Part shown: positions 16,601 to 35,995 of the stretch, piece after piece
Numbering within the stretch: position 1 is the stretch's first letter
Layout of the letters: each line of letters begins with the position of its first letter
NCBI GenBank assembly: GCA_963760735.1
Contig: CAVXEB010000007.1
Location: 149,600 to 213,599, forward strand
DNA: 64,000 bases
Source: an uncultured Chloroflexia bacterium
GTDB lineage: Bacteria; Chloroflexota; Limnocylindria; Limnocylindrales; CSP1-4
Reading direction: 5' to 3'
The notes under the pieces: generated by a model
Database searches by the model: none
Told to the model about the DNA's origin: nothing
The model's input: only the letters and a program-made list of their open reading frames with translations
Program-made: the position numbers and the translations under genes

Positions 16601-19010
16601 CCAGTTCAAGATCTACGGGCAGACGCTGGCGTTCGCGGGAACGGAATTCACGGTGAGCGGGCTGCTCGGACCCGACTCGGTCGGGGGCGTCACCCTCACC
16701 AGCCCCGGGTCGCCCGCCACGGCGTCGGTGGTCGGCAGCCCGTACCCGATCACGCCGTCGAATGCCGTCGGCGCCGGCCTCGCGAACTACACGATCACCT
16801 ACCTGAACGGTCAGCTCACGGTGCTGCCGGCGGTCCTCGTCGTCATCGCGAACGATCGGACCAAGACGTACGGCCAGAGCGTGGTCTTCGCAGGCACCGA
16901 GTTCTCCGTCTTCGGTCTGGTCAACACCGACACGGTCACGAGCGTCACGTTGTCCAGCCCGGGCACGGTCGCCACGGCGACCGTCGCCGGGAGTCCCTAC
17001 CCGATCACGCCGTCGTCGGCGATCGGCAGCGGCCTCGCGAACTACGTGATCTTCTACGGCCCCGGCCAGCTCACCGTGACGCCGGCGCCGCTGGCGATCA
17101 CCGCGAACGACCGGACCAAGACCTACGGCCAGACGGTCGTCTTCGCCGGGACGGAGTTCTCCACGAGCGGCCTGCTCAACGCCGATACGGTCACGAGCGT
17201 CAGCCTGGCCAGCTCGGGCGCGGTCGCCACGGCGACCGTCGCCGGGAGTCCCTACCCGATCACCCCGTCGGCGGCGGTCGGCAGCGGGCTGTCCAATTAC
17301 GCGATCACCTACCTCGACGGCGAGATGGGTGTGACCGCCGCGCCTCTCGCGATCACCGCCGATGACCGGACGAAGACCTACGGCCAGACGGTCACGTTCG
17401 CCGGGACGGAGTTCTCCACGAGCGGCCTGCTCAACGCCGATACGGTCACGAGCGTCAGCCTGGCCAGCCCCGGAGCGGTCGACACCGCGACGGTCGTAGG
17501 CAGCCCGTACCCGATCACGCCGTCGGCGGCGGTCGGGACAGGCCTCGGCAACTACACGATCACCTACGTCGACGGCGAGCTGACCGTCACGCCGGCCACC
17601 GCCGTCATCGTCGTGACGGGCTTCTCCGTCACCTATGACGCGCTGCCACACACGGCGACCGGCTCTGTGACAGGCGTGTTCGGCGAGAATCTCTCTGCGG
17701 GTCTCGACCTGTCGGCGACAACCCGGACGAACGTCGGCCTCTACAGCGATCCATGGACGTTCACGGATCCCGCGGGCAACTACCTGGCCGACAGCGGGAC
17801 CGTGGACAGCGACATCAGCCAGGCCGCGTTGACGATCACCGCCGACGACGCGACGAAGACCTACGGCCAGGCGGTCACCTTCGCCGGGACGGAGTTCTCC
17901 ACGAGCGGGCTGCTCGGGACCGACACGGTCACGAGTGTCACCCTCGCGAGCCCCGGTGCGAGCCCGACGGCCACCGTCGCCGGGAGCCCGTACCCGATCA
18001 CCCCATCGGCGGCGGTCGGCAGCGGCCTTGCGAACTACGCGATCAGCTACGTCGACGGTGCGCTCACGGTCATGCAGGCCGCGCTCACCGTCACCGCCGC
18101 TGACCAGACGAAGCCGTTCGGGGTCACGTTCGTCTTCGCCGGCACCGAGTTCTCGACCGTCGGCCTCGTGAACGGCGACACGGTCGACTCCGCGACCCTG
18201 ACGAGCGCCGGCTCACCGGCCCTCGCCGCACCGACCACGTATCCGATCCTCCTCTCGAACGCGGTCGGGACGGGCCTGGCCAACTACGCGATCAGCTACG
18301 TGGCGGGCACCCTGACGGTCGGCAACACGGCGCCGGTCATCGGCGATGCCAGCGTCACGACGGACGCGATGACCGCGGTCAGCGGCGCGGTCACCGTGAC
18401 CGATCCGGACACTGGCCAGACGGTGACATTGACAATCGCGACCGGACCGGCCAACGGCACGGCCACCGTGGCCGGTGACGGCTCGTTCGTCTACACGCCG
18501 ACCGGCACGTTCACCGGCCGCGACTCGTTCTCGATCCAGGGCTGCGACGACGCCCTGATCCCGGCCTGCGACACTGGCACCGTCGACGTGGAGATCATCC
18601 CGGTCGCCGTCGCCGACACCGGCGTCACGACCGAGGGCAAGACCATCGAGGTCGATGTCGAGGCCAACGACATCGGGGACGCCGGACCTCTCCAGATCGT
18701 CGGGCAGCCGGCGCACGGGACGGCAACGATCGGCTCGATCATCTACACGCCCGATGCCGGCTTCAGCGGCGTCGACCAGGTCGTCTACCGGATTTGCAGC
18801 CCGAACGACCAGACCGTCTGCGACGACGGGACCCTGACGATCACCGTCAACGCCGCCCTACCGGACACCGACGCCGGCGTGATCCTGTCGACCCCGCTCG
18901 GACCGGTCCGGTCCGGGAGCGCGTGGCTCGCCGGGATCCTGGCCCTGCTGTTCGCGGTGGGTGCGGGGGCCGCGGTCGCCATCGGTCGCCGCCGCCGGGA
19001 CGTCGACTGA
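10605..19010 (+). CDS. giant (2801 aa) secreted cell-surface subtilisin-like serine protease with Ig-like, MBG-like and cadherin-like repeat domains and C-terminal membrane anchor
   Basis: Single uninterrupted ORF. Signal peptide; PT-rich linker; I9-like propeptide; S8 catalytic domain (DTGVD, NGHGTAMAG, GTSASSAEVAA). About 12 Ig-like domains of ~105 aa (VTINQAVGQxDPTN...FSEPVTGF...GTVSG.G..YTV.VTGMT..GTV...). 6 MBG-like repeats (TA.D.TKTYGQ..VFAGTEFS..GL...DTV.SV.L.S.G...A.V.GSPYPITPS.AVG.GL.NY.I.Y..G.LTV) plus one variant MBG-like domain. 2 cadherin-like domains. C-terminal LPDTDAG + hydrophobic segment + RRRRD. Confidence 0.85.
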   Translation: MTPPHHRPTAHARTSRVHLMAFLQMFLVVATLVAPVSGMAADSSSSGGTPSSAEPTSQPEPDPSSSPTPTPTPTPEPVAEPSPEPNPSAESPSPAAESPAPTPETPAPTAEPTVAPTDAPTVAPAATRDFVVTFAPGTNATARASILADAGAEVVDTIAPLRMAVIRVVTGSSVVATLQDRTEVVRVEPDRVREAEAAPDDPGYADQWSLGRIGWDRVHDTLDPTGSVVVAVLDTGVDAEHSDLAGRLVSGVSLVPGGDPMADPNGHGTAMAGIIAAVTDNGEGIAGIGWSGVKVMPVTVLGVDGLGQDSDIIEGIVWAVDHGASVVNLSFSNPGYSAALQAAVDYAWDHDVVVVAATGNDGSSAPTYPAGDRGVVGVSNTNRADELDGSSNHGADTFLGAPGTDIATLLAGGGTTSVNGTSASSAEVAASAALLRAIDPAASNAVIVGRLARSAADVGTRSETGNGRLDLARAAADHGSAGVKPLGAAPTGSGGPFVGPYVAAAATVQATTTLNGSVGSISVAPGASITLVMFVNTNGASPANNWFSSRWALATSAPLPGAMTCVDHANHVGGGAYSETMTITAPAAAGTYNLYLYAYNGDACGAGQSALFTRANALDNVAPTVTINQAVGQLDPTNGATITFTVVFSEPVVGFATGDVSFAGSTVPGTLVGTVSGAGPTYTVAVTGMTGSGTVVASLAAGVAADPAGNANAASTSTDNTVTRDVVVPTVTINQAVGQVDPTNTSPILFTVVFSEPVTGFITGDVTFAGTAGGAKVGTVSGSGANYTVSVTGMTTSGTVIASIAASRAIDLAGNNNTASSSTDNSVTWDVTAPTVTINQAVGQVDPTNTSPITYTVVFSEPVTGFATGDVTFTGTAGGTKVGAVSGGPTTYTVSVTGMTTPGTVITSIAAGVATDLSGNANAVSTSADNSVTWDNVAPTVTINQAVGQLDPTNGATITFTVVFSEPVVGFATGDVSFAGSTVPGTLVGTVSGAGPTYTVAVTGMTGSGTVVASLAAGVAADPAGNANAASTSTDNTVTRDVVVPTVTINQAVGQVDPTNTSPILFTVVFSEPVTGFITGDVTFAGTAGGAKVGTVSGSGANYTVSVTGMTTSGTVIASIAASRAIDLAGNNNAASSSTDNSVTWDVTAPTVTINQAVGQVDPTNTSPITYTVVFSEPVTGFATGDVTFTGTAGGTKVGAVSGGPTTYTVSVTGMTTPGTVITSIAAGVATDLSGNANAVSTSADNSVTWDNVAPTVTINQAVGQLDPTNGATITFTVVFSEPVVGFATGDVSFAGSTVPGTLVGTVSGAGPTYTVAVTGMTGSGTVVASLAAGVAADPAGNANAASTSTDNTVTRDVTPPTATIDLQAGSDTGASSTDDITNATTLVFDVTFSESVTGLLANDFSNVGTATTCAFGAPTGAGTTYTVTVTGCSQGTVIVRIRVNAVTDVVGNNNAVINGPTVTIDRTGPTVTINQAVGQVDPTNASPILYTVVFSEPVTGFATGDVSFTGSTSGGAKVGTVSGGPTTYTVSVTGMTTPGTVIATIGAGVATDLSGNANVVSTSTDNTVAWDATPPTVTINQAVGQVDPTNASPITFTVVFSETVTGFATGDVSFTGSTVGGTLVGTVSGGPTTYTVAVTGMTGSGTVVASLGAGVATDATGNGNVTSTSTDNTVTFDNVAPTVTINQAVGQADPTNTSPILYTVVFSEPVIGFATGDVTFAGSTSGGTKVDTVSGSGANYTVTVTGMTTSGSLIAAIAASQATDLAGNNNAASTSSDNTVTWDVTAPTVTINQAVGQVDPTNASPITFTVVFSEPVTGFATGDVTFTGTAGGTKVGTVSGSGANYTVTVTGMTISGTVIATIAVGVAADLAGNGNTASTSTDNTVTWNRATHLGFGQGPTDAIYRSTISPAVTVLVLDDNGFVVTESSASVSLTLAPAGPTLGGTVTVAAVNGIATFNDLTVDQVGTYSLNAASAGLIGTSSATFSILPAPLTITATDQFKIYGQTLAFAGTEFTVSGLLGPDSVGGVTLTSPGSPATASVVGSPYPITPSNAVGAGLANYTITYLNGQLTVLPAVLVVIANDRTKTYGQSVVFAGTEFSVFGLVNTDTVTSVTLSSPGTVATATVAGSPYPITPSSAIGSGLANYVIFYGPGQLTVTPAPLAITANDRTKTYGQTVVFAGTEFSTSGLLNADTVTSVSLASSGAVATATVAGSPYPITPSAAVGSGLSNYAITYLDGEMGVTAAPLAITADDRTKTYGQTVTFAGTEFSTSGLLNADTVTSVSLASPGAVDTATVVGSPYPITPSAAVGTGLGNYTITYVDGELTVTPATAVIVVTGFSVTYDALPHTATGSVTGVFGENLSAGLDLSATTRTNVGLYSDPWTFTDPAGNYLADSGTVDSDISQAALTITADDATKTYGQAVTFAGTEFSTSGLLGTDTVTSVTLASPGASPTATVAGSPYPITPSAAVGSGLANYAISYVDGALTVMQAALTVTAADQTKPFGVTFVFAGTEFSTVGLVNGDTVDSATLTSAGSPALAAPTTYPILLSNAVGTGLANYAISYVAGTLTVGNTAPVIGDASVTTDAMTAVSGAVTVTDPDTGQTVTLTIATGPANGTATVAGDGSFVYTPTGTFTGRDSFSIQGCDDALIPACDTGTVDVEIIPVAVADTGVTTEGKTIEVDVEANDIGDAGPLQIVGQPAHGTATIGSIIYTPDAGFSGVDQVVYRICSPNDQTVCDDGTLTITVNAALPDTDAGVILSTPLGPVRSGSAWLAGILALLFAVGAGAAVAIGRRRRDVD
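11217..12015 (+). other. S8 (subtilase) catalytic domain within giant ORF; Asp ~11307, His ~11403, Ser ~11868
   Basis: Motifs VAVLDTGVD / DPNGHGTAMAGIIAA / VNGTSASSAEVAASAALL in canonical D-H-S order and spacing. Confidence 0.8.
12460..14674 (+). repeat. near-identical 948-bp tandem repeat (2.3 copies) inside giant protease gene; each unit encodes three Ig-like domains (316 aa)
   Basis: ggcggtcggccagctcgacccgacgaacgggg recurs at 12491 and 13439 (period 948). Antisense ORFs 12398-12916, 13277-13864 and 14225-14842 translate identically. Only about 1-2 nt differences between units (e.g. NNNTASSS vs NNNAASSS). Third unit diverges after ~14674. Confidence 0.9.
16560..18330 (+). other. array of 6 MBG-like repeats plus one variant domain within giant ORF
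   Basis: Repeated ~85-aa units containing ...TKTYGQ.V.FAGTEFST.GLL..DTVTSV.L.SPG...ATV.GSPYPITPS.AVG.GLANY.I.Y..G.LTV. Partially identical at nucleotide level (e.g. ~17140 vs ~17400). Confidence 0.65.
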
Positions 19011-19043: not shown

Positions 19044-20096
19044 TCAGGCGGGCGGCACAGGCGCCGTCGACTGGCGAACGACGAGCAGGGGCGCGACGAC
19101 GACGTCGGCAACATCGCCGCTCTGGCTCGTACCCTCGATCATGTCGAGCAGCATGTTCGCCGCGGTCCGCCCCATCGCCACGCCCGACTGGCTGATCGTC
19201 GTGAGGGGTGGCACGGTGAAGGAGGCGATGTCGATGTCGTCGAACCCGACGATCGAGAGTCGGTCCGGCACGACGACTCGCGCCTGGAACGCCGCCTGGA
19301 GCAAGCCGATCGCGATCGTGTCCGAGGCCGCGAACACCGCCGTCGGCCGACCGGGCCGATCGAGGTGGGCGAAGAGCTCCCGGCCGAGGCGATAGCCCGG
19401 CTCGGGGTCCGGCTGGGTCGTGAAGTAGGTCCGGATCCGGTCGCCGGCGCCGCGCTCGCGCATGAACTGTTCGTAGACCGCGGCACGGAGCGGACCGTCC
19501 GCCATCCGTTCGTCGGCGACGCAGATGATCGCCCGGTGGCCGAGCTGCCAGAGATGCTCGAGGGCAAGCATCGTTCCCCTGGCGTTGTCGACGTAGACGC
19601 CCGGCACGCGCCGCGGTCCGACGCGGTCGCTGACCCCGACGACGTGCTCGTGATGCTCCACGAGGTCGTCAAGGGTCGCGTCGCCGCCCGCGATGTCGCC
19701 CATGAGCAGGATCCCGTCGGCGTGCGACTGCTCGAACATCGAGCCGTAGATCGCAGCGACGTCCGGACTCCAGTCGACGTGGCCGAGGAACAGCCGGTAT
19801 CCCCGCGTCCGGGCGACCTCGTTGACGCCGCGCAGGACCTGGGTGTGGAACGGATCGCTGATGTCGCGGACGATCACGCCGAGCAGCGAGCTGCGACTGC
19901 CGCGCAGGGCTCGGGCGAGGAGGTTCGGCTTGTAGCCGAGCTCGTCGGCGACGGCGAGGATCCGCTCCCGGGTCTCCGGCCGGACGGGAACACCGGATTC
20001 GCGGCCGTTGAGGATCCGCGACACGGTCGTGATCGAGACCCCGGACCGCTCGGCGACGTGGCGGAGCGTGATCGTCCCGCCGGCCGGCTTCACCAC
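19044..20096 (-). CDS. LacI family transcriptional regulator
   Basis: N-terminal HTH (ITLRHVAERSGVSITTVSRILNG) plus periplasmic-binding-protein-like sugar-binding core. Divergent from the 20266-27583 operon, so it is the likely regulator of that operon. Confidence 0.9.
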   Translation of the reverse strand: MVKPAGGTITLRHVAERSGVSITTVSRILNGRESGVPVRPETRERILAVADELGYKPNLLARALRGSRSSLLGVIVRDISDPFHTQVLRGVNEVARTRGYRLFLGHVDWSPDVAAIYGSMFEQSHADGILLMGDIAGGDATLDDLVEHHEHVVGVSDRVGPRRVPGVYVDNARGTMLALEHLWQLGHRAIICVADERMADGPLRAAVYEQFMRERGAGDRIRTYFTTQPDPEPGYRLGRELFAHLDRPGRPTAVFAASDTIAIGLLQAAFQARVVVPDRLSIVGFDDIDIASFTVPPLTTISQSGVAMGRTAANMLLDMIEGTSQSGDVADVVVAPLLVVRQSTAPVPPA

Positions 20097-20265
20097 GATG
20101 CGCCCTCCCGCCCCTTGACACGCGCACTATCGTTCCCGTTGAGCGCAAACGTCAAGGCTTATCGTTAAACCGACGATTTCGGCCCTCAGCGGACGTTCCC
20201 GGAGGCACCGTGGCGGACAGCCCGCGACTCCGTCCCAGCGGTTCGACGACGCGCGAGGCGCGGGC

Positions 20266-21366
20266 GTGAACGCGGTCGAAGCGCCGATCCGGCTCGCCGA
20301 CGTCGGGTTCCCGACGGTCTACGGGCGCGGGCTGCTCGCAGAGCTGCCGAACTTCGTCCATCGCCCGTACCTCGTCGTGACGATGGCGGACCTGTGGCCG
20401 CGGTTCGAGCACCTCTTCGACGGCAATCTGGCCGGCGTTCACGAGGTGACGACGATCGAGGTGCCGGCGCTCGACGAGCAGATCGCCGGGCTGCCGGACT
20501 TCGGGGCGATCATCGGCCTCGGTGGTGGACGTGCCCTGGACGTCGCCAAGTTCTTCGCCTGGCGGCGGGGCCGACCGCTCTTCCAGGTCCCGACGTCGAT
20601 GACGACGAACGCTCCGTTCGCCCACCGGGCAGCGTTGCGCCACGAAGGGCGCGAGGTGGGTCTGGCCTGGGCGATCCCCGAGGCGGTCTACGTCGACATC
20701 GACGTGATCCGGAGCGCGCCGCCCGAGCTCAATCGAACCGGCGTCGGCGACGTGCTCTGTCATCACACGGCGCACGTCGACTGGAAGCTGGCCCGCGACG
20801 CGGGGCAGGAGGATCGTCGCTGGCCGTACGACGAGCGACTCGTCGCCGAGGCGCTCGAGCAGCTCGAGCTCGTCGTCGCCGGCCTCGACGAGATCCACGA
20901 CATCACCGATGCCGGCATCCGTGTGCTGATGTCGGCGCACCGCTGGGGCGGTGCCGCGTTCCACAACGCAGGCTGGAACGCCCGCCATCTCGACGGCGTC
21001 GACCACGCATTCCTGTACTGCCTGGAATTCCAGACCGGCCGCAGCTTCGTCCACGGACAGGCCGTGGGGCTCGGCACCTACCTGGGGGCCGTCCTCCAGA
21101 ACAACCAGCCCGAGATCGTCCTCGGCTGGCTCCATCGCGCCGGGGTGGACATCCGGCCTGAGGCGATGGGCATCGATTGGGAGGCCGCCGGCACGGCGAT
21201 GCAGCGGCTCGCCTGGTTCGTCCGCCACGCGGACCAGCCCTACACGATCGCCGATGCCCGGCCGGTGACCGCCGACGTCGTCGACGGCATCCGTGACCGG
21301 ATCACCGCCACGTTCGGGGCGTGGCCCGCGGAGGGGCCGGCCGCCCCGAGAGGAGGGTTCGTCTGA
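20266..21366 (+). CDS. DHQS-like superfamily dehydrogenase (glycerol dehydrogenase / glycerol-1-phosphate dehydrogenase AraM-like, Fe-ADH fold), paralog 1
   Basis: GLGGGRALDVAKF (GGGxxxDxAK) and PTSMTTNAPF (PTxxSxDAP-like) motifs of the DHQS/glycerol-DH superfamily. 366 aa. Stop overlaps the next gene's start (TGATG). Confidence 0.7.
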   Translation: MNAVEAPIRLADVGFPTVYGRGLLAELPNFVHRPYLVVTMADLWPRFEHLFDGNLAGVHEVTTIEVPALDEQIAGLPDFGAIIGLGGGRALDVAKFFAWRRGRPLFQVPTSMTTNAPFAHRAALRHEGREVGLAWAIPEAVYVDIDVIRSAPPELNRTGVGDVLCHHTAHVDWKLARDAGQEDRRWPYDERLVAEALEQLELVVAGLDEIHDITDAGIRVLMSAHRWGGAAFHNAGWNARHLDGVDHAFLYCLEFQTGRSFVHGQAVGLGTYLGAVLQNNQPEIVLGWLHRAGVDIRPEAMGIDWEAAGTAMQRLAWFVRHADQPYTIADARPVTADVVDGIRDRITATFGAWPAEGPAAPRGGFV

Positions 21367-22649
21367 TGGACGATCGACTGCGCAGGAGCAGGTTGGGGAC
21401 GATCGGCGCGCTCGCCGGGTTCGTCCTGATCGTCGCGAGCGCATGCACGAGCGGTGCATCTCCCTCGACCGGGGGCGGTGCCAGCGCGCCCGTCGCGAGC
21501 ACCGGCGGCGGGGCCTCGAGCAGTGCCCCCGCCGGCAGCGCGACGGCCGGCACGAAGCATGTCGCCATCGTCAACAAGGACATGACCGACGACGAGATCA
21601 AGGCCGCGATCGCGGCCGAGGGCTCGCTCAACGTCGGCAACTGGACGTACTCGGCGACGAGCGAGATCGTCAACCAGTTCCAGAAATACGTGAAGGACAC
21701 ATACGGCGCAGACATCAAGCTCAACTACGTCGGGTCGCAACAGCCGAGCGAGTACCTGACCAAGCTCGCCGCTGACCAGAAGGCCGGCAACAAGGCCAGC
21801 TTCGACGTGATCGCGGTCGAGGAGAACTACTGGTACGACGCGTCCCAGCAGGGCCTCGTCGACGATGTGCTCACGTCGGATCTGATCCCGAACCAGAAGA
21901 TGGTCCTCGACGTCTTCAAACACGCCCCGCAGTCGATCGCGTTCCAGTCGACGGCCTACCCGGGCGTCGTCTACGACAAGAAGGACGCGGGCTACCTGAC
22001 GAAGCTCATGGACCTCGCCGACCCACGACTCAAGGGCAAGCTGACCCTGCCCAAGCCGACGGACATCACCGCCGGCGGGTTCCTCCTCGGCCTCGCCGCC
22101 GAAATGGGCAAGGACTACAAGGACCCCGAGCAGATGAAGCAGGTCGTGGACTGGGCGGTCCAGAACCTCGGCCCCAATGTCCTCAAGTACACGACCGACC
22201 AGGCGACGCCGCAGAAGCTGTTCGAGTCAGGTGCGATCGACGCGGTCGGATTCTGGAACAGCCTCGCTCGCCTGGAGTACCTGGGCGGGCATACGGAGGC
22301 GGCGCTGCTCGTGCCGCCGACGATCTACCCGGCCAATGGCTACCTGTGGGTCCCGAAGAATGCGCAGCACCCGGTGCTTGCCCAGGTCTTCATGAACTGG
22401 CGGCTCGCCAAGGACGTCCAGTTCCCGAACGCGTGGCCCATCGACCACGGCCAGTGGAGCGAGCTCTCCGAGGGCTTCCTGGGCCCCGACTACGTCGACC
22501 AGGTGCCCGACTGGTTCAAGACCGACTACTACACCTACTTCCCGAAGCTCGACCAGATCCAGTCGGGGTTCAAGGCGATCGACTGGGAGGCCTACAACGC
22601 CAGCTCGAAGATCTTCCTCGACTACTACGCCAAGCAGCTGGGCGCGTAG
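21366..22649 (+). CDS. ABC transporter substrate-binding lipoprotein (PotD/FbpA-type family)
   Basis: Start MDDRLRRSRLGTIGALAGFVLIVASAC with lipobox. Periplasmic SBP fold. Followed by PotB/PotC-like permeases and a PotA/FbpC-like ATPase. Confidence 0.85.
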   Translation: MDDRLRRSRLGTIGALAGFVLIVASACTSGASPSTGGGASAPVASTGGGASSSAPAGSATAGTKHVAIVNKDMTDDEIKAAIAAEGSLNVGNWTYSATSEIVNQFQKYVKDTYGADIKLNYVGSQQPSEYLTKLAADQKAGNKASFDVIAVEENYWYDASQQGLVDDVLTSDLIPNQKMVLDVFKHAPQSIAFQSTAYPGVVYDKKDAGYLTKLMDLADPRLKGKLTLPKPTDITAGGFLLGLAAEMGKDYKDPEQMKQVVDWAVQNLGPNVLKYTTDQATPQKLFESGAIDAVGFWNSLARLEYLGGHTEAALLVPPTIYPANGYLWVPKNAQHPVLAQVFMNWRLAKDVQFPNAWPIDHGQWSELSEGFLGPDYVDQVPDWFKTDYYTYFPKLDQIQSGFKAIDWEAYNASSKIFLDYYAKQLGA

Positions 22650-22728
22650 GCCCCGCTGACGCGCAAGATGTGGCTCGCCCGTCGGCGACGGCGGGCGAGC
22701 CGATCCATCCCTGGCACCGAGGCCGATC

Positions 22729-23625
22729 GTGGTCAGTGAACGCCTGTCGATGCCGATGTCCGGCGTCGCCCCGGAGCTCCGGCGGCGCGTGCGCAACACC
22801 CGCCTGATCGGCCTCGCCCTGCTCATCCCCGCAGGGGTCCTGGCGGTGCTGTTCCTGTACTACCCCCTGGTGTTCATCCTCCAGATGAGCTTCACCGAGG
22901 GCAGCACGTATCTGTCGCAGGCGGGTCCGGTCCAGACGGTCGACAACTACCGCCTCATCGTCGAGCGCTACCTGCCGAACCTGTTCGTGACGATCCAGCT
23001 GGCCCTGCTGGCGACGGGGGTCGACCTCGTGCTCGGCTTCCCGTTCGCCTACATCCTCGTTCGCCGGATCCGGTACCGCGACGTCGTCCGGGCGCTGATG
23101 GTCTTCCCGATGTTCGGGGCGCTGTACGTCACCTTCGGGGTCAGCACGGTCCTCCTGCCCGGCGGCCCGCTCGACCCACTGTTCAGCGCGCTCGGAGTCT
23201 CCGGCGCGTCGCTGCTCTTCAGCCTGCCGTCGGTCGTGTTCGCGATGGCGATCTTCACGTTCCCGTTCATGGTCATGAGCATCGGGACGGCGCTGTCGAA
23301 CGTCGACCCGACGCTCGAGGAGGCCGCGGCCTGCCTCGGCGCGGGCCCGTTCACGACGTTCCGCCGCGTCGTGCTGCCGCTCGCCCGCTCCGGCGTCGTG
23401 GCGGGCTCGCTCCTGGTCTTCGGCTGGAGCATCGGCGCGTTCGCGGAGCCGGCGCTGCTCGGCGGTCTCCACGAGCAGCGCTCACTGGCGGTAACGATCT
23501 ACGACCGGGGTGTGGTCCAGAACGACTACGGGCTCGCCTCGGCGATGGGCATGATGCTGCTGGCGATCGCCTTTGTCGTGACGTACTTCTCGCTGCGCTA
23601 CTCGCGCGGAGCGCTGGCCGAATGA
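22729..23625 (+). CDS. ABC transporter permease (PotB-like)
   Basis: 6 predicted TM segments. EAA loop LEEAAACLGAGPFTTFRRVVLPL. Confidence 0.85.
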   Translation: MVSERLSMPMSGVAPELRRRVRNTRLIGLALLIPAGVLAVLFLYYPLVFILQMSFTEGSTYLSQAGPVQTVDNYRLIVERYLPNLFVTIQLALLATGVDLVLGFPFAYILVRRIRYRDVVRALMVFPMFGALYVTFGVSTVLLPGGPLDPLFSALGVSGASLLFSLPSVVFAMAIFTFPFMVMSIGTALSNVDPTLEEAAACLGAGPFTTFRRVVLPLARSGVVAGSLLVFGWSIGAFAEPALLGGLHEQRSLAVTIYDRGVVQNDYGLASAMGMMLLAIAFVVTYFSLRYSRGALAE

Positions 23626-24476
23626 CGGCGAGCGCCCACGGCGGGCCGAGTCCGGCGAGCGCCGCTACGCCGGCCGTCCGTCCCCCGCGCGTCACGACGC
23701 GCCGCGTCACCGCAGTCGTCAGCCACGCGTACATCTGGTTCTGCCTGTTCCTGTTCGTCCTGCCGTTCGGGGCGCTGCTGTTCCAATCGTTCGCCGCCTA
23801 TGGCGGGAGCTCCGGTCTCGAGAACTACCGGGGCGCGATCGGCGACTTCAAGGAGAACCTCTTCTGGAGCGTCAAGATCACCGGCCTGGCCCTCGCGATC
23901 GACCTCGCGGTCAGCCTCCCGGCGGCGTACGCGCTCGTTCGCTACCCGGTCCCGGGGCGGCGGATCATCTTCTCGATCCTGCAGCTGTCGCTGTACGTGC
24001 CGGGCGCCGTCATCGGCCTGGCGCTGCTGCTGACGTACACGTTCACGTATCACGCCGTGTCGATGTGGGGGCTCGTGCTGGCGATGGCGGTCGGGACGTT
24101 CCCGTTGATGCTGACCCCGATCGTCGTGGCGTTGAAGGACCTGCCACCCGAGTTCGAGGAGGCCGCCCGCTGCCTCGGGGCGACCGGCTGGCAGACCTAC
24201 CGAAAGGTCGTGTTCCCGCTCATCGGACCGGGCGTGTCGGCCGGCCTGCTGCTGTGCTTCATCATCGTCTTCAACGAGTACCTGGTCACGCTGTTCGTCC
24301 ATCCGGTCGACATCGAGACCGCGCCGCTCCGGATCTTCAACCTCCAGAAGACCGGCGGGCTGTCGCCGGCGACGGCGGCCCTCGCCGTCACGATGCAGCT
24401 CGTGTCGTTCGCGGCCGTGCTCGTGTTCTTCCGGGTCTTCGGGACCCGCCACTTCAAAGGGACCTACATCCTCTGA
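23622..24476 (+). CDS. ABC transporter permease (PotC-like)
   Basis: TM-rich. EAA loop FEEAARCLGATGWQTYRKVVFPLI. 4-nt overlap with the upstream permease. Confidence 0.85.
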   Translation: MTASAHGGPSPASAATPAVRPPRVTTRRVTAVVSHAYIWFCLFLFVLPFGALLFQSFAAYGGSSGLENYRGAIGDFKENLFWSVKITGLALAIDLAVSLPAAYALVRYPVPGRRIIFSILQLSLYVPGAVIGLALLLTYTFTYHAVSMWGLVLAMAVGTFPLMLTPIVVALKDLPPEFEEAARCLGATGWQTYRKVVFPLIGPGVSAGLLLCFIIVFNEYLVTLFVHPVDIETAPLRIFNLQKTGGLSPATAALAVTMQLVSFAAVLVFFRVFGTRHFKGTYIL

Positions 24477-25567
24477 TGGCGACCGTCCGCCTGGCCTCGA
24501 TCACGAAGCGCTACGGCCAGACCGTTGCCGTCGACGGCCTCGACCTGGAGATCGCCAACGGCGAGCTGGTCACGCTGCTCGGCCCGTCGGGCTGCGGCAA
24601 GACCACCACGCTGCGGATGGTCGCGGGGCTCATCGAGCCGACCGACGGCCGGGTCTTCTTCGATGCCGACGACGTCACGTTCCTGCCACCACGGAAGCGG
24701 AACATCGGCTTCGTCTTCCAGTCGCCGGCACTCTTTCCGCACCTGTCTGTCGCCGACAACGTCGCGTTCGGGCTCTCGGTCAAGGGCGCCAGGAAGGACG
24801 CGATCCGGGACCGCGTCGACGAGATGCTGGCCATGGTCGGGCTATCGGGCTATGGAGCGAGGCTGCCGGCGCAGCTTTCCGGAGGCCAGCAGCAGCGGGT
24901 CGCGCTCGCCAGGGTCCTCGCAACGGATCCCCGCGTCCTGCTGTTCGACGAGCCCCTGTCCGCGCTCGACCGGAATCTCCGCGACACGCTGAAGTACTCG
25001 ATCCTCGACCTCCAGCGGCGGACCGGCAAGACCGCGATCTACGTCACCCACGACCAGTCCGAGGCCTTCGCGATCTCGGATCGCATCGTCGTGATGAACG
25101 CCGGCCGGGTGGAGCAGATCGGGACCCAGACCGAGATCTACCTCCAGCCGCAGACCCGCTTCGTCGCCGAGTTCATCGGCGCCAACAACGGCCTCGAGGG
25201 GACGGTCGCGAGCGTCGACGGGTCCGGCGAGGACGGTCGGGCGACGGTTCGCGTTGGCGACCTGACGCTGCGCGCGCACGCGCACGACGGGCTGTCGGTC
25301 GGCGACCCGGTCATCGCCTATCTCCGTCCCGAAGACGTCCGGGTGCTCGAGGACGCTCACGACGGCGGCTGGCCGAACGTCGTGGAGGGCGTCGTCGACC
25401 GGGTGATCTTCGAGGGGCCGACGGCCCAGCTCCGTGTCGATCTCGGGGGTCGCGAGATCCGCGCCGACATCAGCGGCAACCGCCGGCTGACCGTCGGCCA
25501 GGACGCGGGCCGGATCGTCCTTGGGTTCGACGAGCTGACGCTCATCCCGGCAGAGCCACCGGCGTGA
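24477..25567 (+). CDS. ABC transporter ATP-binding protein with C-terminal TOBE/regulatory domain (PotA/FbpC-like)
   Basis: True start MATVRLASITKRYG (ATG 24477, just after the permease stop). Walker A GPSGCGKTT, signature LSGGQQQRVALAR, Walker B LLFDEPLSALD. The ORF-track 500-aa version is a 5' over-extension. Confidence 0.9.
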
Positions 25568-25571
25568 TGCG

Positions 25572-26672
25572 GTGACCGATGCCGTCGCCCTCGCGAGGCA
25601 GGGCTTCCGAACGGTCTTCGGGCACGAGCTCGTCGGCGAGCTGCCGGCGTTCGTCCACCGGCCGTACCTCGTCGTGACGATGGCCGACCTGTGGCCTCGG
25701 TTCGAGGCCCAGCTGGCAGGTCCGTCCATGGCCGGCGTTCACCTGGTCGACACGCTCGAGCTGAGCGAGCTGGTCGCCCTGGAGGAGCGCCTGCCGAGGA
25801 CCGCGGCGATCATCGGTCTCGGCGGTGGACAGGCCCTCGACGTGGCGAAGTTCCTGGCCTGGACGCGCCGGCTGCCGCTGTTCCAGCTGCCGACCGCGAC
25901 CACCGTCAACGCGCCGTTCGGCCACCGCGCCGGCCTCCGCGACCAGGGGCGCGTCCGCTACCTCGGCTGGGCGGTCCCCGAGGCGGTCTACATCGACTTC
26001 GAGGTCATCGGATCGGCGCCACCGAACCTGAACCGGTCCGGCGTCGGCGACGTGCTCTGCTACCACACCGCTCGCCACGACTGGCAGCTCGCCGACCGGC
26101 TCGAGCGGAGCGAGCCGCGCTGGCCGTTCGACGCCGGCCTGATCGCCGACGCGGCGATCGTGATGGGCTGGGTCGTCGACGCGCTCGACGAGATCCGGGC
26201 CGGCTCGGAGGCGGGGGTTCGGGCCCTCGTCAACGCCCATCGCTGGGGCGGGACGACCTTCCACGACTCCGGCTGGAACCCGCGCCACATCGAGGGCGTG
26301 GAGCACTTCGTGTTCTACAACCTCGAGCGGATCACGGGCCGTCACTTCATCCACGGCCAGCCGGTCGGGCTGGGAATCATCGCCGGGTCCGTGCTGCAGG
26401 ACAACGAGCCCGACGCGATGGCCGCCGCGATCGCCCGTGCCGGCGTCGACATCCGGCCGGAGGCGATGGGCGTCACCTGGGACGACGTCGGCGAGGCGCT
26501 CCGGACACTCGGCTCGTATGTCCGGGAGGTCGGACTCTGGTTCACGGTCGCCGACACCGTCACGGTCACCGATGACCACGTCGCACGGATTCGCGACCTC
26601 GTCGAACGGACCTTCGGCGCGTGGGAGCCCATCACTCCGGGGCCCGCGGCCGATGTCGGAGGAGCGCGATGA
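25572..26672 (+). CDS. DHQS-like superfamily dehydrogenase, paralog 2
   Basis: Co-linear with the 20266-21366 protein over the full 366 aa (GLGGGQALDVAKF, PTATTVNAPF, HRWGG.FH..GWN.RH.-GV-H.). Stop overlaps the next start (ATGA). Confidence 0.7.
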   Translation: MTDAVALARQGFRTVFGHELVGELPAFVHRPYLVVTMADLWPRFEAQLAGPSMAGVHLVDTLELSELVALEERLPRTAAIIGLGGGQALDVAKFLAWTRRLPLFQLPTATTVNAPFGHRAGLRDQGRVRYLGWAVPEAVYIDFEVIGSAPPNLNRSGVGDVLCYHTARHDWQLADRLERSEPRWPFDAGLIADAAIVMGWVVDALDEIRAGSEAGVRALVNAHRWGGTTFHDSGWNPRHIEGVEHFVFYNLERITGRHFIHGQPVGLGIIAGSVLQDNEPDAMAAAIARAGVDIRPEAMGVTWDDVGEALRTLGSYVREVGLWFTVADTVTVTDDHVARIRDLVERTFGAWEPITPGPAADVGGAR

Positions 26673-27583
26673 AGCTGGGGCTGACGCTGCCGCAGGGATG
26701 CGATCGCGAGTACCTGGGCCTCGATGCGGCCACGGCCTGGCGACGGACCGACGAGGTCGCGCGCTGGGCGGAGGATGTCGGCTTCGAGTCCCTGTGGGTC
26801 TACGACCACATGCAGGTCGACCCGCCGCCCGAGGAAGCACCGATCTTCGAACCCATCGCTGAGCTGGCCGCACTGGCGGTCGCGACGAGCCGCGCCCACC
26901 TCGGCCACCTCGTGCTTGCGGCGTCCTATCGCAACCCGGGCCTGACCGCGAAGGCCATCTCGACGATCGACGTGGTCAGCGGCGGTCGGGCGATCCTCGG
27001 GATCGGTGCCGGGTGGAAGGAGGATGAGTGGCTGGCCTACGGCTACGGCTTCCCCGCGGCACCCGAGCGGCTGGCCGTCCTCGCCGACCACCTCGAGATC
27101 ATCACCCGGATGCTCGCGCCCGGGCGCGCCACGTACGAAGGCAAGCACGCCCATGTCCGCGATGCGATCCACGAGCCGAAGGGCCTGCAGCAGCCGCGGA
27201 TCCCGATCCTCGTCGGCGGGAACGGCCCGAAGGTCACCTGGCACCTCGCCGCGCGCTTCGCGGACGAGCTGAACCTGGATGCCCTCACCCCGGCGCAGGT
27301 CGAGGCGGCCCTGCCCGTGATCCGCCAGCGCTGCGCCGAGGTGGGTCGCGACCCTGAGTCGCTCGCCGTCTCGGTCCACGTCTGGGGCGAGGCGGCCGCG
27401 GCTCCGGCCGGCGCCGCCCGGCGGCAGCGGCTCCGCGACTACGCGGATCTCGGCCTCTCCCGCGTCATCGTCCAGGGGTTCGCCTGCGCCAAGGATCCGC
27501 ACGCGATCGACGACGTCATCGAGGACGCCACGGCGGTCGGCCTGCTCGAGGCGGATCGGAGCCCGGTCCAGGCCCGGCCCTAG
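26669..27583 (+). CDS. LLM-class (luciferase-like) flavin/F420-dependent oxidoreductase
   Basis: MKLGLTLPQ... start. TIM-barrel LLM motifs (ESLWVYDHM, ILGIGAGW, ILVGGNGPK) typical of actinobacterial F420-dependent LLM family. Confidence 0.75.
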   Translation: MKLGLTLPQGCDREYLGLDAATAWRRTDEVARWAEDVGFESLWVYDHMQVDPPPEEAPIFEPIAELAALAVATSRAHLGHLVLAASYRNPGLTAKAISTIDVVSGGRAILGIGAGWKEDEWLAYGYGFPAAPERLAVLADHLEIITRMLAPGRATYEGKHAHVRDAIHEPKGLQQPRIPILVGGNGPKVTWHLAARFADELNLDALTPAQVEAALPVIRQRCAEVGRDPESLAVSVHVWGEAAAAPAGAARRQRLRDYADLGLSRVIVQGFACAKDPHAIDDVIEDATAVGLLEADRSPVQARP

Positions 27584-28224
27584 GGGCCGGCCCGCAGCAG
27601 GTCGAGCTCGCGCAGGTCGGACCGGAGGCGAGCCGGATCCACGTACCGGATGGCCCGGATCCCGAGCCGGGCCGCGGCCTCGACGTTCTCGAGCTGGTCG
27701 TCGACGAAGAGCGTCTCGCCAGGGACGAGCCCGTATCGATCCAGCAGGACCTCGAAGATCCGCGGATCCGGCTTGGCGAGACGCTCGTTGCCGGAGATCA
27801 CGATCCCGTCGAACCAGTCGAGGAACGGATAGCGCGGCCGAGCGAGGGGGAACGTCTCGCCCGACCAGTTGCTCAGGGCGAACAGACGGATGCCCCGCCG
27901 GCGCAGATCGGCGAGGACCGCGACGGTCGGCTCGATGGCGTCACCGAGGGTCTCGGGCCACCGCTTCCACCAGGCCTCGATCAGCTCCCGCTGATCCGGG
28001 TGACGGGTCGCCAGCTCTGCGACCGCGTCCGCCCACGGTCTGCCGGCATCCTGGGCCCGGTTCCACTCCGGCGTCGCGACGGTCGCGAGGAAGTCCTCCA
28101 TCGCGGCCTCGTCGTCGAACAGGCTCCGGTACAGGTAGCGCGGATTCCAGTCGATCAGGACGCCGCCCAGATCGAAGATCGCGGCACGAATCGGCTGCTC
28201 CACGGCGGCCGGCTCGACGCTCAC
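27580..28224 (-). CDS. HAD-superfamily hydrolase (phosphatase)
   Basis: GTG start at 28224 (GTGA overlap with upstream PEBP gene). Motif I AAIFDLGGVLIDW (DxG), motif III K (RLAKPDP), motif IV FVDDQLENV. Confidence 0.75.
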   Translation of the reverse strand: MSVEPAAVEQPIRAAIFDLGGVLIDWNPRYLYRSLFDDEAAMEDFLATVATPEWNRAQDAGRPWADAVAELATRHPDQRELIEAWWKRWPETLGDAIEPTVAVLADLRRRGIRLFALSNWSGETFPLARPRYPFLDWFDGIVISGNERLAKPDPRIFEVLLDRYGLVPGETLFVDDQLENVEAAARLGIRAIRYVDPARLRSDLRELDLLRAGP

Positions 28225-28898
28225 GCCCGGAAGGTGCCGGTGAGGGTCGCCCGGTCGACGACGCGAGCCTTTGCGAGCGCCGCCCGCACGGCGGCGCCGT
28301 CCGGGTGGCCGGTGAGCGCGAGCGGCGCCTCGAGCGCGTAGAGGGTGAACCGGTAGTGGTGCGTGCCCGACGGCGGGCATGGACCGCCGTAGCCGACACG
28401 GCCGAAGTCGTTCATCCCCTGCTGCGGTGGGTTCGTCTTCGGTGACAGGCCGGCCGGCAGGCTCGAGGTCGTCGGGTCGACGTCGAGGACCGACCAGTGG
28501 ACCCAGTTGCGCCCGTCCGGGTCGTCGACGAACAGCACGAGTGCCTTCGCACCCGGCGGGACGCCCGACCAGGCGAGGGGCGGCGAGCGGTCCGCGCCCT
28601 TGCAGGTGAATTCTGCCGGGATCGCCCGGTCCGACTCGAATGCGGTCGAGGTGAGAGTGAGCGGACTCGTGCTCGGGGCCACGGATGTCTCCTCTGATGG
28701 TCCCGCGGCGGGCTCCACGGAACGGGATGCGCCGGGCGACGGGCTGACCGGGGCCACCTGGCTCCGGGCGGTCGGGGTCGAGGACTGCGGTTCGGCGACG
28801 GCGGACGACCCGGCGCTCGACGCACAACCAGCGAGGACCGCCAGCAGGGCCATCGCCAGACCCGCCAACCGGCGTCGTGAAGCGCCGGATCGTCCCAC
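28221..28898 (-). CDS. YbhB/YbcL (PEBP/RKIP) family lipoprotein
   Basis: GTG start at 28898 gives VGRSGASRRRLAGLAMALLAVLAGC (lipobox LAGC). HHYRFTLYALE and GYGGPCPP are hallmark PEBP motifs. Confidence 0.75.
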   Translation of the reverse strand: MGRSGASRRRLAGLAMALLAVLAGCASSAGSSAVAEPQSSTPTARSQVAPVSPSPGASRSVEPAAGPSEETSVAPSTSPLTLTSTAFESDRAIPAEFTCKGADRSPPLAWSGVPPGAKALVLFVDDPDGRNWVHWSVLDVDPTTSSLPAGLSPKTNPPQQGMNDFGRVGYGGPCPPSGTHHYRFTLYALEAPLALTGHPDGAAVRAALAKARVVDRATLTGTFRA

Positions 28899-29090
28899 CG
28901 TGGCGCTCAGCGCACGGGATTGGGCCAGGAGGAGAGGATCGACTCGGTCCGCCACGTTGGATCCACCGTTCGTCAGCCGCTCGTCGAGCCTAGACGACGT
29001 GGGGTGAGCGCACAACGTCCCACGGATTCGTGCCGCCGGGGCCGGCACACCGCCGAGCGGCTCGTCTCACCGAACCCGGTCCGATCCCTC

Positions 29091-34808: not shown

Positions 34809-35795
34809 CTTCCCAAGCTGAATGTCGCGGGTTCGAACCCCAGTCCTCCCGCTCCTCTTCCCTCGCCTGACGTTCGCCTGAGCGCGACCGCAGTCAGGGG
34901 AGCGGCTCGTAGACGAGCGTCCCCCCGTCCTCGAGGGTGATGGTCAGGGCGTTCGACGCAATCGCGTAGCTCGCGCTGTTCGTCAGGGCCAGCACGTACA
35001 GGTCGCCGTGGGACCCGTCACCGCAGGGCACGATCGCCGACGGCCCGGGCACGATCGACAGGCCGCCCGCCGCCGTCGCCGTCCACTGGCCGACGAGGGT
35101 GTTGCAGTCGGCGATCGCGCTGAACTGCCCGCCCGCCTTGAACGAGACGGTGTACTTCGAGCGCTCGGCGGCCGGGATGACGCCCTGATGCACGGGGTCG
35201 CGCGTGGTGATGCTGACGAGCTGCCAGTTCGTCCCGACCAGGTCGGCGCCCGGGCTCGGGGCGGGTGTCGGGGACGGCGTCGGCTTGGGCGTCGGGGTCG
35301 GTGTCGGGGTCGGGGTCGGGGTCGGTGTGGGCGTCGGTGACTTCGTGGGTGCCTCGGTCGGCTCCGTCGTCGGCGAGGCGGACGCGCTCGGCGGGGCCGA
35401 AGCGGTCACCGTGGGCGTCGGGCTCGCGGTCGGCGTGGCCGTCGGGGTCGGGCTCGGTGACGCGCTCGGTGACGGGCTCGCGCTGGCTGACGCGGAAGGC
35501 GACGAGCTGGCGCTGGGTGACGCCGAGGGACTCGGGACCACCGCCGTGCCGGAGCTCGCCACGAACGTGCCGGTCCCACCGTCGGCTGTCGTGAGCGTCA
35601 GCTGACCGCCGGCGATGACCCAGGTCGTCACATTCGCGAGCTCGTGGGCGAAGATGTCCCCGTACGACCCGTCCGGGCAGGCCACGAGCGTGCTTGGCCC
35701 GGGCGTGATCGTGATGCCGTCCTTGCCGCGCAGGCTGTAGGTCCCGGCCAGGGCATTGCAGTCCGCCCTGGCGCTGAACGTGCCGTCGGTGGCGA
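34809..35795. repeat. 985-bp direct repeat, copy A (100% identical to 45693-46679); begins with tRNA-Gly 3'-half remnant 34809-34855
   Basis: Identity starts exactly at cttcccaag (anticodon loop of tRNA-Gly CCC) and ends at ...tgccgtcggtggcga. ORFs in all frames translate identically in both copies. Offset 10884 bp. Confidence 0.9.
34894..35795 (-). pseudogene. 5'-truncated duplicate of the META-domain gene at 45778-46884
   Basis: C-terminal ~300 codons are identical to 45778-46677. The upstream part is replaced by unrelated sequence. It lacks the signal/TM segment and first META half, so it is probably non-functional. Confidence 0.7.
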
Positions 35796-35995
35796 GGCCC
35801 CGACCCCGCGATCCGCGGGTGGCGCAACCGCGCAACGTGTTCGCGACCCTTGACACGGTTGCACACGAGTGCATACACTCGTGTGCCGCAACGCGTGTTC
35901 GTTCCTGTAGCGGACCACGCGACGTCGTCGGCCCCGAGGCGTGGCGGTCAGTCGTTGCCGATGGACCGGTTGTCCATCGGCGCGAGGAGCGTCGG

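Follow-up and report, generated by a model that had tools for sequence, protein, structure and literature searches.

The importers closest to the one described here are PotABCD of Escherichia coli, which takes up spermidine; PhnSTUV, which takes up 2-aminoethylphosphonate (2-AEP); and AfuABC, of the same importer class, whose binding protein, AfuA, has hexose and heptose phosphates as ligands (PMC4546632). The nearest described dehydrogenases are the glycerol-1-phosphate dehydrogenases (G1PDHs; EgsA/AraM), known from a lipid synthesis context, and FGD, a glucose-6-phosphate dehydrogenase dependent on F420, offers a chemical precedent for F420-linked sugar phosphate oxidation (PMC8498797). Here, we analyze a locus that brings together relatives of these importers, of the G1PDHs, and of FGD. 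It lies in a 64,000-nucleotide stretch (the window; G+C content, ~70%) of contig CAVXEB010000007.1 (assembly GCA_963760735.1, positions 149,600 to 213,599), from an uncultured Chloroflexia bacterium of the Limnocylindrales. A LacI-family repressor gene is divergent from an operon in which genes for a lipoprotein substrate-binding protein (SBP), two permeases (PermA and PermB), and an ATPase of an ATP-binding cassette (ABC) importer are embedded between two dehydrogenase genes, DH1 and DH2. A gene for an oxidoreductase of the luciferase-like class (LLM) ends the operon, and a HAD hydrolase gene converges on it.

Every part of the locus comes from a known superfamily, and a repressor, a binding-protein importer, and oxidoreductases together follow ordinary catabolic-operon logic. 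What is new is the combination of G1PDH-fold dehydrogenases with a PotD-fold importer and an F420-type LLM, as well as a distinct dehydrogenase branch and an SBP family outside Pfam. We read the block as a substrate-inducible catabolic operon that imports a charged sugar or polyol derivative, phosphorylated and/or aminated, and oxidizes it in NAD- and F420-dependent steps, a reading to which we would give about an even chance. While we are fairly confident of the general mechanism, we are not confident of the substrate class.

Genes were called by open reading frame (ORF) listing, translation, and Pfam and NCBIfam family scans with curated cutoffs. All genes described in an earlier, sequence-only reading of this DNA (the original prediction) were recovered in place or within a few bases. 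The features of the locus are as follows.

19044-20096, minus strand: LacI-family repressor (Pfam LacI and Peripla_BP_3), divergent from the operon
20110-20172: regulatory region between lacI and DH1, with the lacI promoter and candidate operator(s)
20266-21366, plus strand: DH1 dehydrogenase, 366 amino acids (Fe-ADH_2, PF13685, 1.7e-14)
21366-22649, plus strand: lipoprotein SBP, PotD-type (cluster D) fold with a divergent pocket
22667-22709, plus strand: RNA hairpin between the SBP and PermA genes, 14-bp perfect stem
22729-23625, plus strand: PermA, ABC permease, PotB/PhnU/ModB-like (BPD_transp_1, 2.5e-14)
23622-24476, plus strand: PermB, ABC permease, PotC/PhnV-like (BPD_transp_1, 1.5e-16)
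24476-25567, plus strand: ABC ATPase with a C-terminal TOBE domain (ABC_tran, 1e-35; TOBE_2)
25572-26672, plus strand: DH2, paralog of DH1, 366 amino acids
26669-27583, plus strand: LLM, luciferase-like hydride transferase, probably F420 dependent (PF00296, 4.5e-40)
27580-28203, minus strand: HAD-IA hydrolase, YihX-like, convergent with the operon (PF00702, 2.9e-18)

The ATPase start is placed at the ATG at 24476, replacing 24473, and the HAD gene starts at a GTG at either 28203 or 28224.

Conservation and modular makeup of the block

Relatives were collected by scanning species-representative genomes with DH1, which yielded 79 loci (here given L numbers), all from metagenome-assembled genomes (MAGs). 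The best 80 of 141 genome matches likewise all lie in MAGs, and the closest, in MAGs labeled uncultured Chloroflexia, Chloroflexota, or Candidatus Limnocylindrales, have 85 to 90% amino acid identity to DH1. The nine window proteins were then mapped onto the relatives' loci by tblastn. This genomic-context search, a check the original prediction had called for, found the block again in 13 consecutively numbered loci and one further locus (L001-L013 and L027). In these, the order LacI, divergent from DH1-SBP-PermA-PermB-ATPase-DH2-LLM, is kept at 63 to 97% amino acid identity, and HAD usually closes the block. In all, ~20 Limnocylindria-like MAGs carry the block, with flanks that vary. In L001 (16264-18088), the closest relative, a second LLM with 52% identity directly follows the operon LLM and takes the place of HAD.

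Of the window genes tested as flanks (PEBP, AraA, and neighboring ORFs), none recurs beside the block apart from a META-domain match in L004, and this holds for the closest relatives too. As gene order is kept while the flanks differ, the block is conserved as a functional unit rather than through plain synteny, and its gene arrangement is far beyond chance. In plasmids and cultured organisms, the only matches to the dehydrogenases have ≤~30% identity, and our literature search found nothing on this gene combination. The locus had been put forward as a LacI-controlled uptake and oxidation operon of an undescribed type, which is upheld both by that search and by the curated cutoffs that its dehydrogenases miss.

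To place the two dehydrogenases, a neighbor-joining tree of 81 family members was built, and it resolves into four clades. Members of the DH1 clade always lie directly upstream of a PotD-type SBP gene, while those of the DH2 clade always have the LLM gene next. The two remaining clades (from Anaerolineae, Hydrogenedentota, Phototrophicaceae, and others) lie within sugar-type clusters. DH1 and the importer occur without DH2 in seven loci (L015-L020 and L023). Conversely, the importer stands divergent from LacI-DH2-LLM, with no DH1, in L028, L036, L040, and L045. DH2-LLM also joins other importers: MAGs of Acidimicrobiia and Limnocylindrales have LacI divergent from SDR-RbsC-RbsB-RbsA-(NagB-II)-DH2-LLM, where SDR is a short-chain dehydrogenase/reductase. 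Loci with SDR-CUT2-(NagB-II)-DH2-LLM are L041, L043, L044, L048, L049, and L058, and L026 has MFS-DH2-LLM, with a major facilitator superfamily (MFS) transporter. Because each dehydrogenase clade keeps its own partner and the modules also occur apart, the operon is a fusion of two older modules, DH1-importer, often with a HAD hydrolase gene, and DH2-LLM. DH1 and DH2 are old paralogs and not the product of a recent duplication. The pair had been proposed to be duplicated around the transporter, and that picture gives way to two separable modules.

The importer can also be found with other enzymes. In L085, LacI is divergent from SDR-SBP-permeases-ATPase-LLM, with the SDR in place of a DH, and in L086, LacI is divergent from SBP-permeases-ATPase-LLM with no DH at all. 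In L082 and L083, the LLM and importer genes point away from each other, and a DegT aminotransferase gene is convergent. Of all enzymes, the LLM accompanies the importer most constantly, and these module combinations point to a constant core of importer, LLM, LacI, and some NAD-type carbinol dehydrogenase.

Within the window operon, the genes are closely packed. Nearly every junction had been said to overlap; four of the six same-strand junctions do, by 1 nt (DH1/SBP and PermB/ATPase) or 4 nt (PermA/PermB and DH2/LLM), while ATPase/DH2 has a gap of 4 nt and SBP/PermA a gap of 79 nt. LLM and HAD converge with overlapping stop codons. The 79-nt spacer contains the hairpin (minimum free energy, -40.6 kcal/mol; z = -2.2), whose GC-rich stem lacks a T-run, and no terminator-like site was found on the plus strand inside the block. 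The hairpin may be an mRNA stabilizer or an element that sets the expression ratio of SBP to membrane components.

The dehydrogenases as a separate branch of the G1PDH-like fold

DH1 and DH2, recognized from the outset as paralogs of 366 amino acids each, are 56% identical over 360 amino acids. Both contain the cofactor motif GGGxxxDxAK (GLGGGRALDVAK), and G86-G88, D92, and K95 of this GGG..D..K nucleotide motif are invariant in 81/81 family members. So is the metal triad D162 (D or E)/H247/H263, which aligns with the ligand positions of G1PDHs. Since nucleotide motif and metal triad are both invariant, the enzymes are likely to be catalytically competent. Four arginines (R121, R125, R157, and R240) are invariant as well, with R240 aligned to the Arg of the G1PDH SSRP motif.

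Other motifs are the family's own. At the N terminus, there is FxTVFGRxLxxEL...HRPYLVVTMxDLW, and the substrate loop reads PTxxT(V/T)NAPF(G/A)HRAxLR, where G1PDHs have PTxxS(N/H)DG(I/F)xSP. Both motifs reported in the original prediction, GGGxxxDxAK and PTxxTxNAP, are indeed present; the second, which had been assigned to the G1PDH/AraM type, is instead specific to this family. Within the loop, an invariant Asn115 replaces the Asp of the G1PDH and GldA loops, and an invariant Tyr251, four residues past the metal-binding His, stands where the G1PDH HLFxH motif has its second His. The loop Asp and this second His of G1PDHs are presumably substrate contacts, as we take from UniProt/HAMAP annotation.

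No curated family accommodates the two proteins. The best model for both is NCBIfam G1PDH NF002022, with 111.6 bits for DH1 and 104.3 bits for DH2 against a cutoff of 413. GldA NF006941 gives 52.1 and 49.2 bits against a cutoff of 336, with matches to the N-terminal domain only, in line with the view that these are not ordinary GldA enzymes. The dehydroquinate synthase (DHQS) model TIGR01357 gives 30.9 and 33.5 bits against 305. Identification as G1PDH, GldA, or DHQS is rejected, given the missed cutoffs and the differing substrate motifs. The family comprises 195 clusters at E ≤ 1e-30 and 1470 at E ≤ 1e-10 (50% identity clusters; 1.84 billion representatives).

Structure comparison was performed with an AlphaFold2 (AF2) model of DH1 (pLDDT, 84) in Foldseek. 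The nearest structures are the G1PDHs 5fb3 (TM score, 0.71), 4rfl, and 4rgq (~0.7), followed by 3ce9, AraM 9h4x, and GldAs; KdnB is also among the neighbors, while DHQS is far lower. DHs and G1PDHs (5fb3, 4rgq, and 9h4x) thus share the Fe-ADH_2 family and the fold (TM score, 0.69 to 0.71), the GGGxxxDxxK cofactor motif, and the acid/His/His triad in addition to the SSRP-aligned Arg. In contrast, they have only 19 to 24% identity in fold-search alignments, and the context of the DHs is catabolic. The family profile ranks 3ce9, a "glycerol dehydrogenase" from Clostridium acetobutylicum, first of all solved structures (9e-33, with a match that spans the entire catalytic region) and G1PDHs second. 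Unlike the DHs, it has a G1PDH-type PTSTSNDG loop and lacks the SSRP-motif Arg. To our knowledge, 3ce9 is a structural genomics entry with no published function, and as it is itself uncharacterized, it allows no functional transfer. Taken together, alignments and models suggest that the DHs form a separate, uncharacterized branch of the G1PDH-like fold and that they depend on a metal and on NAD(P).

Consistent differences between DH1 and DH2 are found at only six positions, four of which flank active-site motifs (T114/V, D243/E, L250/F, and A266/P). At these positions, DH2 has the state of the outgroup clades and the DH1 state is derived. So few differences would fit enzymes whose substrates are close relatives, or of which one acts on the substrate and the other on an intermediate.

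A PotD-fold importer with a divergent pocket

The SBP has a signal peptide ending in LIVASAC, followed by a Ser/Gly/Ala linker, and gives no Pfam match at E ≤ 0.01. Its AF2 model (pLDDT, 78) falls by Foldseek within the PotD/Fe/opine/phosphonate cluster, with 4edp, PotD, the opine binders AgtB and MotA, PhnS (4r6y), AfuA, and P5PA as neighbors. The PotD structures 1pot and 7xjm match with a TM score of 0.69 (E ~1e-15). Importers of the PotD family had been said to take no sugars; this does not hold, as AfuA binds sugar phosphates (PMC4546632) and MotA and AgtB are among the structural neighbors.

The SBP family profile was aligned to E. coli PotD by hhalign, with a probability of 39%, so the residue equivalences carry modest confidence. 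PotD cage residues W34, T35, Y85, W229, and W255 are kept, with the NWT and WNS motifs retained. In contrast, of the four acidic polyamine ligands (E36, D168, E171, and D257), three are lost (E36 corresponds to Y35 and E171 to G177, and D257 is deleted), and a nearby D173 is all that remains. E92/E93 are new invariants of the SBP family. The sugar ligands of AfuA are not conserved either, with H205, D206, and E229 corresponding to N238, S239, and P262 in the SBP, and AfuA has only a weak direct sequence match to it. An AfuA-like sugar-phosphate pocket is rejected on these grounds. What is comparable is an invariant TDITAGG loop aligned with the AfuA SSGT loop, which may be equivalent to the surroundings of AfuA Thr150, a phosphate ligand (paper numbering). 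With both PotD acids and AfuA sugar ligands changed, the SBP appears not to bind polyamines and not to be an ortholog of AfuA. The pocket would best suit a ligand that combines a charged group with a sugar-like body.

The remaining components tell a similar story. PermA scores 101 bits with PotB (cutoff, 348) and 82 with PhnU2 (593), PermB scores 88 with PotC (326) and 58 with PhnV (359), and the ATPase is best matched by PhnT2, with 362 bits against 457.7, ahead of PotA, with 343 against 482. PotABCD shares the makeup of an SBP, two permeases, and a TOBE ATPase, as well as the SBP fold, but the window operon differs in its LacI-type regulator and in the position of the importer genes between dehydrogenases. 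AfuABC and PhnSTUV belong to the same structural SBP cluster. AfuABC likewise has no adjacent kinase, while all cutoffs of the Phn models are missed by the window importer.

The LLM oxidoreductase and the HAD hydrolase

The original prediction took the LLM to be probably F420 dependent, and we agree. It passes TIGR03560 with 237.3 bits (cutoff, 231.4; E = 1.8e-70), its best PDB relatives are F420-dependent Mer enzymes (2e-24), and F420-type models score far above FMN-monooxygenase models. FGD/FSD and Mer belong to the same LLM/LLHT TIM-barrel class. There is no orthology to FGD, however, as the LLM belongs to TIGR03560 and reaches 45.2 bits with the FGD model TIGR03554, against a cutoff of 420. 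By these comparisons, the LLM is probably an F420-dependent enzyme. Our literature search found no characterized member of TIGR03560 (the Rv1855c family), and nothing relevant to the block for Limnocylindria with F420 or for PF13685.

The HAD hydrolase passes TIGR01509 (59 bits; cutoff, 29.4) and matches glucose-1-phosphatase NF006991 below the cutoff (2.4e-12; 47 bits versus 295). Its motif I, FDLGGVLIDW, has the nucleophile Asp and lacks the Asp+2 of classical phosphatases; E. coli YihX has a motif I of the same form (DLGNV). Identity as the phosphonatase PhnX, considered for a 2-AEP-like importer, is rejected because no PhnX model matched and motif I is YihX-like.

The gene had been described as convergent and not part of the same operon. 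It is convergent here, but elsewhere it is tied to the importer: HAD adjoins 9/26 importer loci versus 0/25 sugar-ABC loci, in L018 and L023 it comes directly after the ATPase gene on the same strand, and in L084 these two genes share 4 nt. These linkages argue that HAD belongs functionally to the system. A resemblance to the araL/araM pairing of Bacillus subtilis had also been suggested. As in that pairing, a dehydrogenase of the G1PDH fold has a HAD phosphatase in its vicinity, but the window HAD is of type IA and YihX-like, and AraL is of a different HAD subtype, IIA. The analogy is rejected because the ara genes of the window form a separate locus 8 kb away and AraA stands beside the block in no relative.

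The repressor and its regulatory region

The repressor has an N-terminal helix-turn-helix (PF00356, 55 bits, 6e-15) and a periplasmic-binding-protein-like effector domain (Peripla_BP_3, PF13377, 124 bits, 9e-36). It stays below every NCBIfam equivalog cutoff, with RbsR being the best (204 bits versus 382). A lacI gene lies beside the block in 19/26 importer loci.

No perfect palindromic operator was found in the region by repeat search or by script; an imperfect motif emerged only when 13, and then 25, loci were compared. In the window, its elements are TTGACA (20115-20120), ACTATCGTT (20126-20134), AAACGTCAAG (20147-20156), and TTATCGTTAAAC (20159-20170). The pattern cTTGACA..ACTATCGTT..(G/C)(C/A)AAACGTCAAG..TTATCGTT(A/G)A, spanning ~55 bp, is conserved in 19 DH1-type loci and is unique within the window, with 0 matches expected. 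The lacI promoter, TTGACG-18 nt-GATAGT, runs on the minus strand from 20155 to 20126 and has a -35 element that AAACGTCAAG overlaps. No other sigma-70-like match was found in 19900-28400. A variant, AAACGTTAAG/TAAACGTTAAG, occupies the equivalent place in the DH2- and CUT2-type loci L028, L041, L045, and L048. In the form (T/C)AAACGTTAAG, it is more palindromic, and the LacI proteins of these loci are 62 to 70% identical to the window LacI. This conservation suggests one or more candidate LacI operators, autoregulated and centered on CG. As the same kind of repressor and operator serves different importers, the effector of LacI is probably a shared pathway metabolite.

Proposed pathway and rival explanations

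In the proposed pathway, LacI would hold transcription down at an operator that overlaps the lacI promoter until it binds a metabolite of the pathway. Thereafter, the PotB/C/A-like core would, together with the lipoprotein SBP, bring in a small polyhydroxylated compound that carries a charge; a sugar or polyol phosphate and/or an amino sugar is the most likely candidate. DH1 and DH2 would act on secondary carbinols, oxidizing those of this substrate and those of an intermediate closely related to it. The LLM would catalyze the step most tightly tied to import, either an FGD-like hemiacetal oxidation or the reduction of a keto intermediate, and the YihX-like HAD would remove phosphate.

A phosphate is indicated because the nearest relatives of the DHs are G1PDHs, with R240 SSRP-aligned and R121, R125, and R157 invariant; because HAD is linked to the importer; because importer loci contain no sugar kinase; and because the ATPase best matches PhnT2 of a 2-AEP importer and the AfuA class takes sugar phosphates (PMC4546632). 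The kinase search covered every importer locus, including seven with precomputed Pfam annotation, and found none, whereas ROK and FGGY kinases occur only with loci of CUT1-type sugar importers. An amine is indicated because the SBP keeps the PotD aromatic cage and E92/E93 are invariant, and because genes for amino-sugar enzymes lie near 30 of the 79 family members. These genes (DgaE-like, NagB-II, DegT, class-III aminotransferase, or PIG-L) are within ≤6 kb and are found in all four clades. The neighbor matches include the DgaE-family ammonia-lyase TIGR01437 (1e-55) and NagB-II NF046059 (1.6e-72), and the known substrates of DgaE and NagB-II are phosphorylated amino sugars.

Several observations weigh against this reading. 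Loci in which DH2-LLM is paired with CUT2 or MFS importers also lack kinases, which weakens the absence of a kinase as an argument for phosphoester import. That DH2-LLM is found, too, beside RbsB-like or MFS importers and beside SDRs of the polyol type (GolD/DthD family) counts against a charged substrate. The window operon itself contains no aminotransferase, deaminase, or kinase, and HAD is missing from some full blocks (L011 and L027). Pocket-aligned positions of the SBP gain no Arg or Lys, so that an amine fits better than a phosphate. The phosphate role of the SSRP Arg is an assumption that we carry over from G1PDH structure work, and the LLM clears its TIGR03560 cutoff by just 6 bits. 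The substrate class, in short, is suggested by gene context and alignment.

We also consider, tentatively and as the less likely prospect, that a phosphoester is imported intact by the PotD-fold ABC system, needing no kinase, and is oxidized with F420. The DHs would then be a new G1PDH-fold subfamily of sugar-, polyol-, or amino-sugar-phosphate dehydrogenases, and the FGD-like TIGR03560 enzyme would also act on the phosphoester, charging F420. DgaE-like or NagB-II enzymes would deaminate in some lineages, the YihX-like HAD would dephosphorylate, and the route would operate in soil Chloroflexota and Acidimicrobiia. If true, this would be the first function for TIGR03560 and for the DH branch.

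Among the rival explanations, one dispenses with phosphate and amine altogether. DH2 and LLM would form an epimerase or transhydrogenating couple on a neutral sugar or polyol and so convert an unusual stereoisomer to a common one: NAD+-linked carbinol oxidation by DH2 would be followed by F420H2-linked reduction of the ketone by LLM, or the two would run the other way round. A second, related substrate would be all that DH1 and the importer add. DH2 and LLM are always adjacent and are translationally coupled by their 4-nt overlap. The occurrence of just these two beside CUT2 (RbsB-like) or MFS importers and polyol-type SDRs (GolD/DthD family), along with the few clade-specific differences between DH1 and DH2, would suit such a couple. 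We nevertheless consider it unlikely, since it leaves the PotD-fold SBP, the HAD linkage, and the amino-sugar enzymes unaccounted for, and in L086, the importer has LLM alone. A salvage of glycerol phosphate or polyol phosphate is, in our estimate, somewhat more doubtful still. Here, sn-glycerol-1-phosphate or a similar compound, from archaeal lipids, lipoteichoic acid, or phosphatidylglycerol head groups, would be imported, the DHs would make dihydroxyacetone phosphate or ketose phosphates, and HAD would free the phosphate. G1PDHs are the closest solved relatives by both sequence and fold, the SSRP-aligned Arg is conserved, HAD is linked and kinases are absent, and the importer resembles phosphonate and sugar-phosphate systems. 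However, the G1PDH model is matched with 111 bits versus 413, the S(N/H)DG of G1PDHs has become T(V/T)NAP (Asp to an invariant Asn), and the second His of HLFxH has become an invariant Tyr. Annotation as G1PDH is also unreliable at such distances: a haloarchaeal protein so annotated, with ~22% identity, turned out to reduce glycolaldehyde and to have no activity on G1P (PMC9700705). Salvage would, further, leave the constant LLM partner and the nearby amino-sugar enzymes unexplained.

Ordinary PotD-type uptake of polyamines, 2-AEP, Fe3+, or thiamine, with oxidoreductases that either convert an amino-alcohol or aldehyde product or bear just a loose relation to the uptake, appears very unlikely. 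The structural neighbors of the SBP do include PotD (TM score, 0.69) and PhnS, its aromatic-cage residues (NWT, WNS, and others) are kept, and the permeases and ATPase best match Pot and Phn models. Still, every Pot and Phn equivalog cutoff is missed, three of the four acidic PotD polyamine ligands are lost, and control is of the LacI type, as in sugar systems. DH, LLM, LacI, and operator are common to ribose-type ABC loci as well, and the annotated loci have no enzyme of polyamine or phosphonate catabolism (PhnW/X/A, PuuA-D, or SpuC) nearby. We regard a biosynthetic role, in making a G1P-like lipid or cell wall precursor, an aminocyclitol, or a compatible solute, as the most improbable of all. 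Within the superfamily, G1PDH/AraM relatives and sugar-phosphate cyclases do serve biosynthesis; distant members have DegT aminotransferases nearby, which usually do so as well; and KdnB, a metal-dependent alcohol dehydrogenase that acts on a sugar, is a fold neighbor. KdnB works with the aminotransferase KdnA in making an amino sugar. An SBP-dependent importer in the middle of the operon, however, and a LacI repressor with an autoregulated divergent promoter speak against such a role, and the annotated loci contain no glycosyl-, prenyl-, or nucleotidyl-transferases.

Significance

On the preferred reading of a catabolic operon for a charged sugar or polyol derivative, the block represents a recurrent and tightly regulated form of nutrient acquisition in Limnocylindria-like Chloroflexota, whose carrier MAGs are uncultured and in many cases come from soil surveys. 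Identification of the substrate would give functions to the TIGR03560 family of F420-type LLMs and to the DH branch, which is distinct within the G1PDH/DHQS-like superfamily and now routinely misannotated as "glycerol-1-phosphate dehydrogenase." It would also add a new ligand class for PotD-fold binding proteins and a catabolic use of F420 outside Actinobacteria. The "G1PDH" annotation of such genes in bacterial MAGs should not be taken as a sign of archaeal-type lipid synthesis.

Neighboring features

A gene at 10605-19010 encodes a giant secreted protein of 2801 amino acids and ends 34 nt from the lacI stop. The protein begins with a signal sequence and contains a linker rich in Pro, Ser, and Thr and the subtilase-type motifs DTGVD and NGHGT; at its C terminus, a hydrophobic anchor precedes RRRRD. 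L081 also has an S8 peptidase gene beside the block, on the opposite side. Directly upstream of the HAD gene and in the same direction lies a gene of the phosphatidylethanolamine-binding protein (PEBP) family (28221-29048, minus strand), with a probable lipoprotein signal; it was not found near the block in relatives.

The separate L-arabinose-type locus (35756-44306) comprises araA (three AraA domains), a CUT2 ABC system (Peripla_BP_4 SBP, ATPase, and BPD_transp_2 permease), its own LacI, and an FGGY kinase. It is bracketed by a 987-bp exact direct repeat (34809-35795 and 45693-46679), with copies 10,884 bp apart, which overlaps the start of the araA ORF. Within the repeat, there is an imperfect G-rich internal repeat (GGGGTC/GGTGTC-like, copies 12 to 18 nt apart) that gives rise to identical Gly/Val-rich ORFs of 133 amino acids at 35204-35605 and 46088-46489. 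The 987-bp repeat could be a segmental duplication, a mobile unit, or an assembly artifact.

Among the distant DHs, a recurrent cluster is seen in four loci (L060, L066, L070, and L078; ~8 to 16 kb in each) from Phototrophicaceae/Aggregatilineales MAGs. Genes for an IolG-like Gfo/Idh/MocA protein and a small cupin are divergent from DH-DegT-M55 D-aminopeptidase-CUT1 ABC, in some cases followed by an M20 peptidase. This cluster looks like a separate amino-sugar or aminocyclitol pathway.

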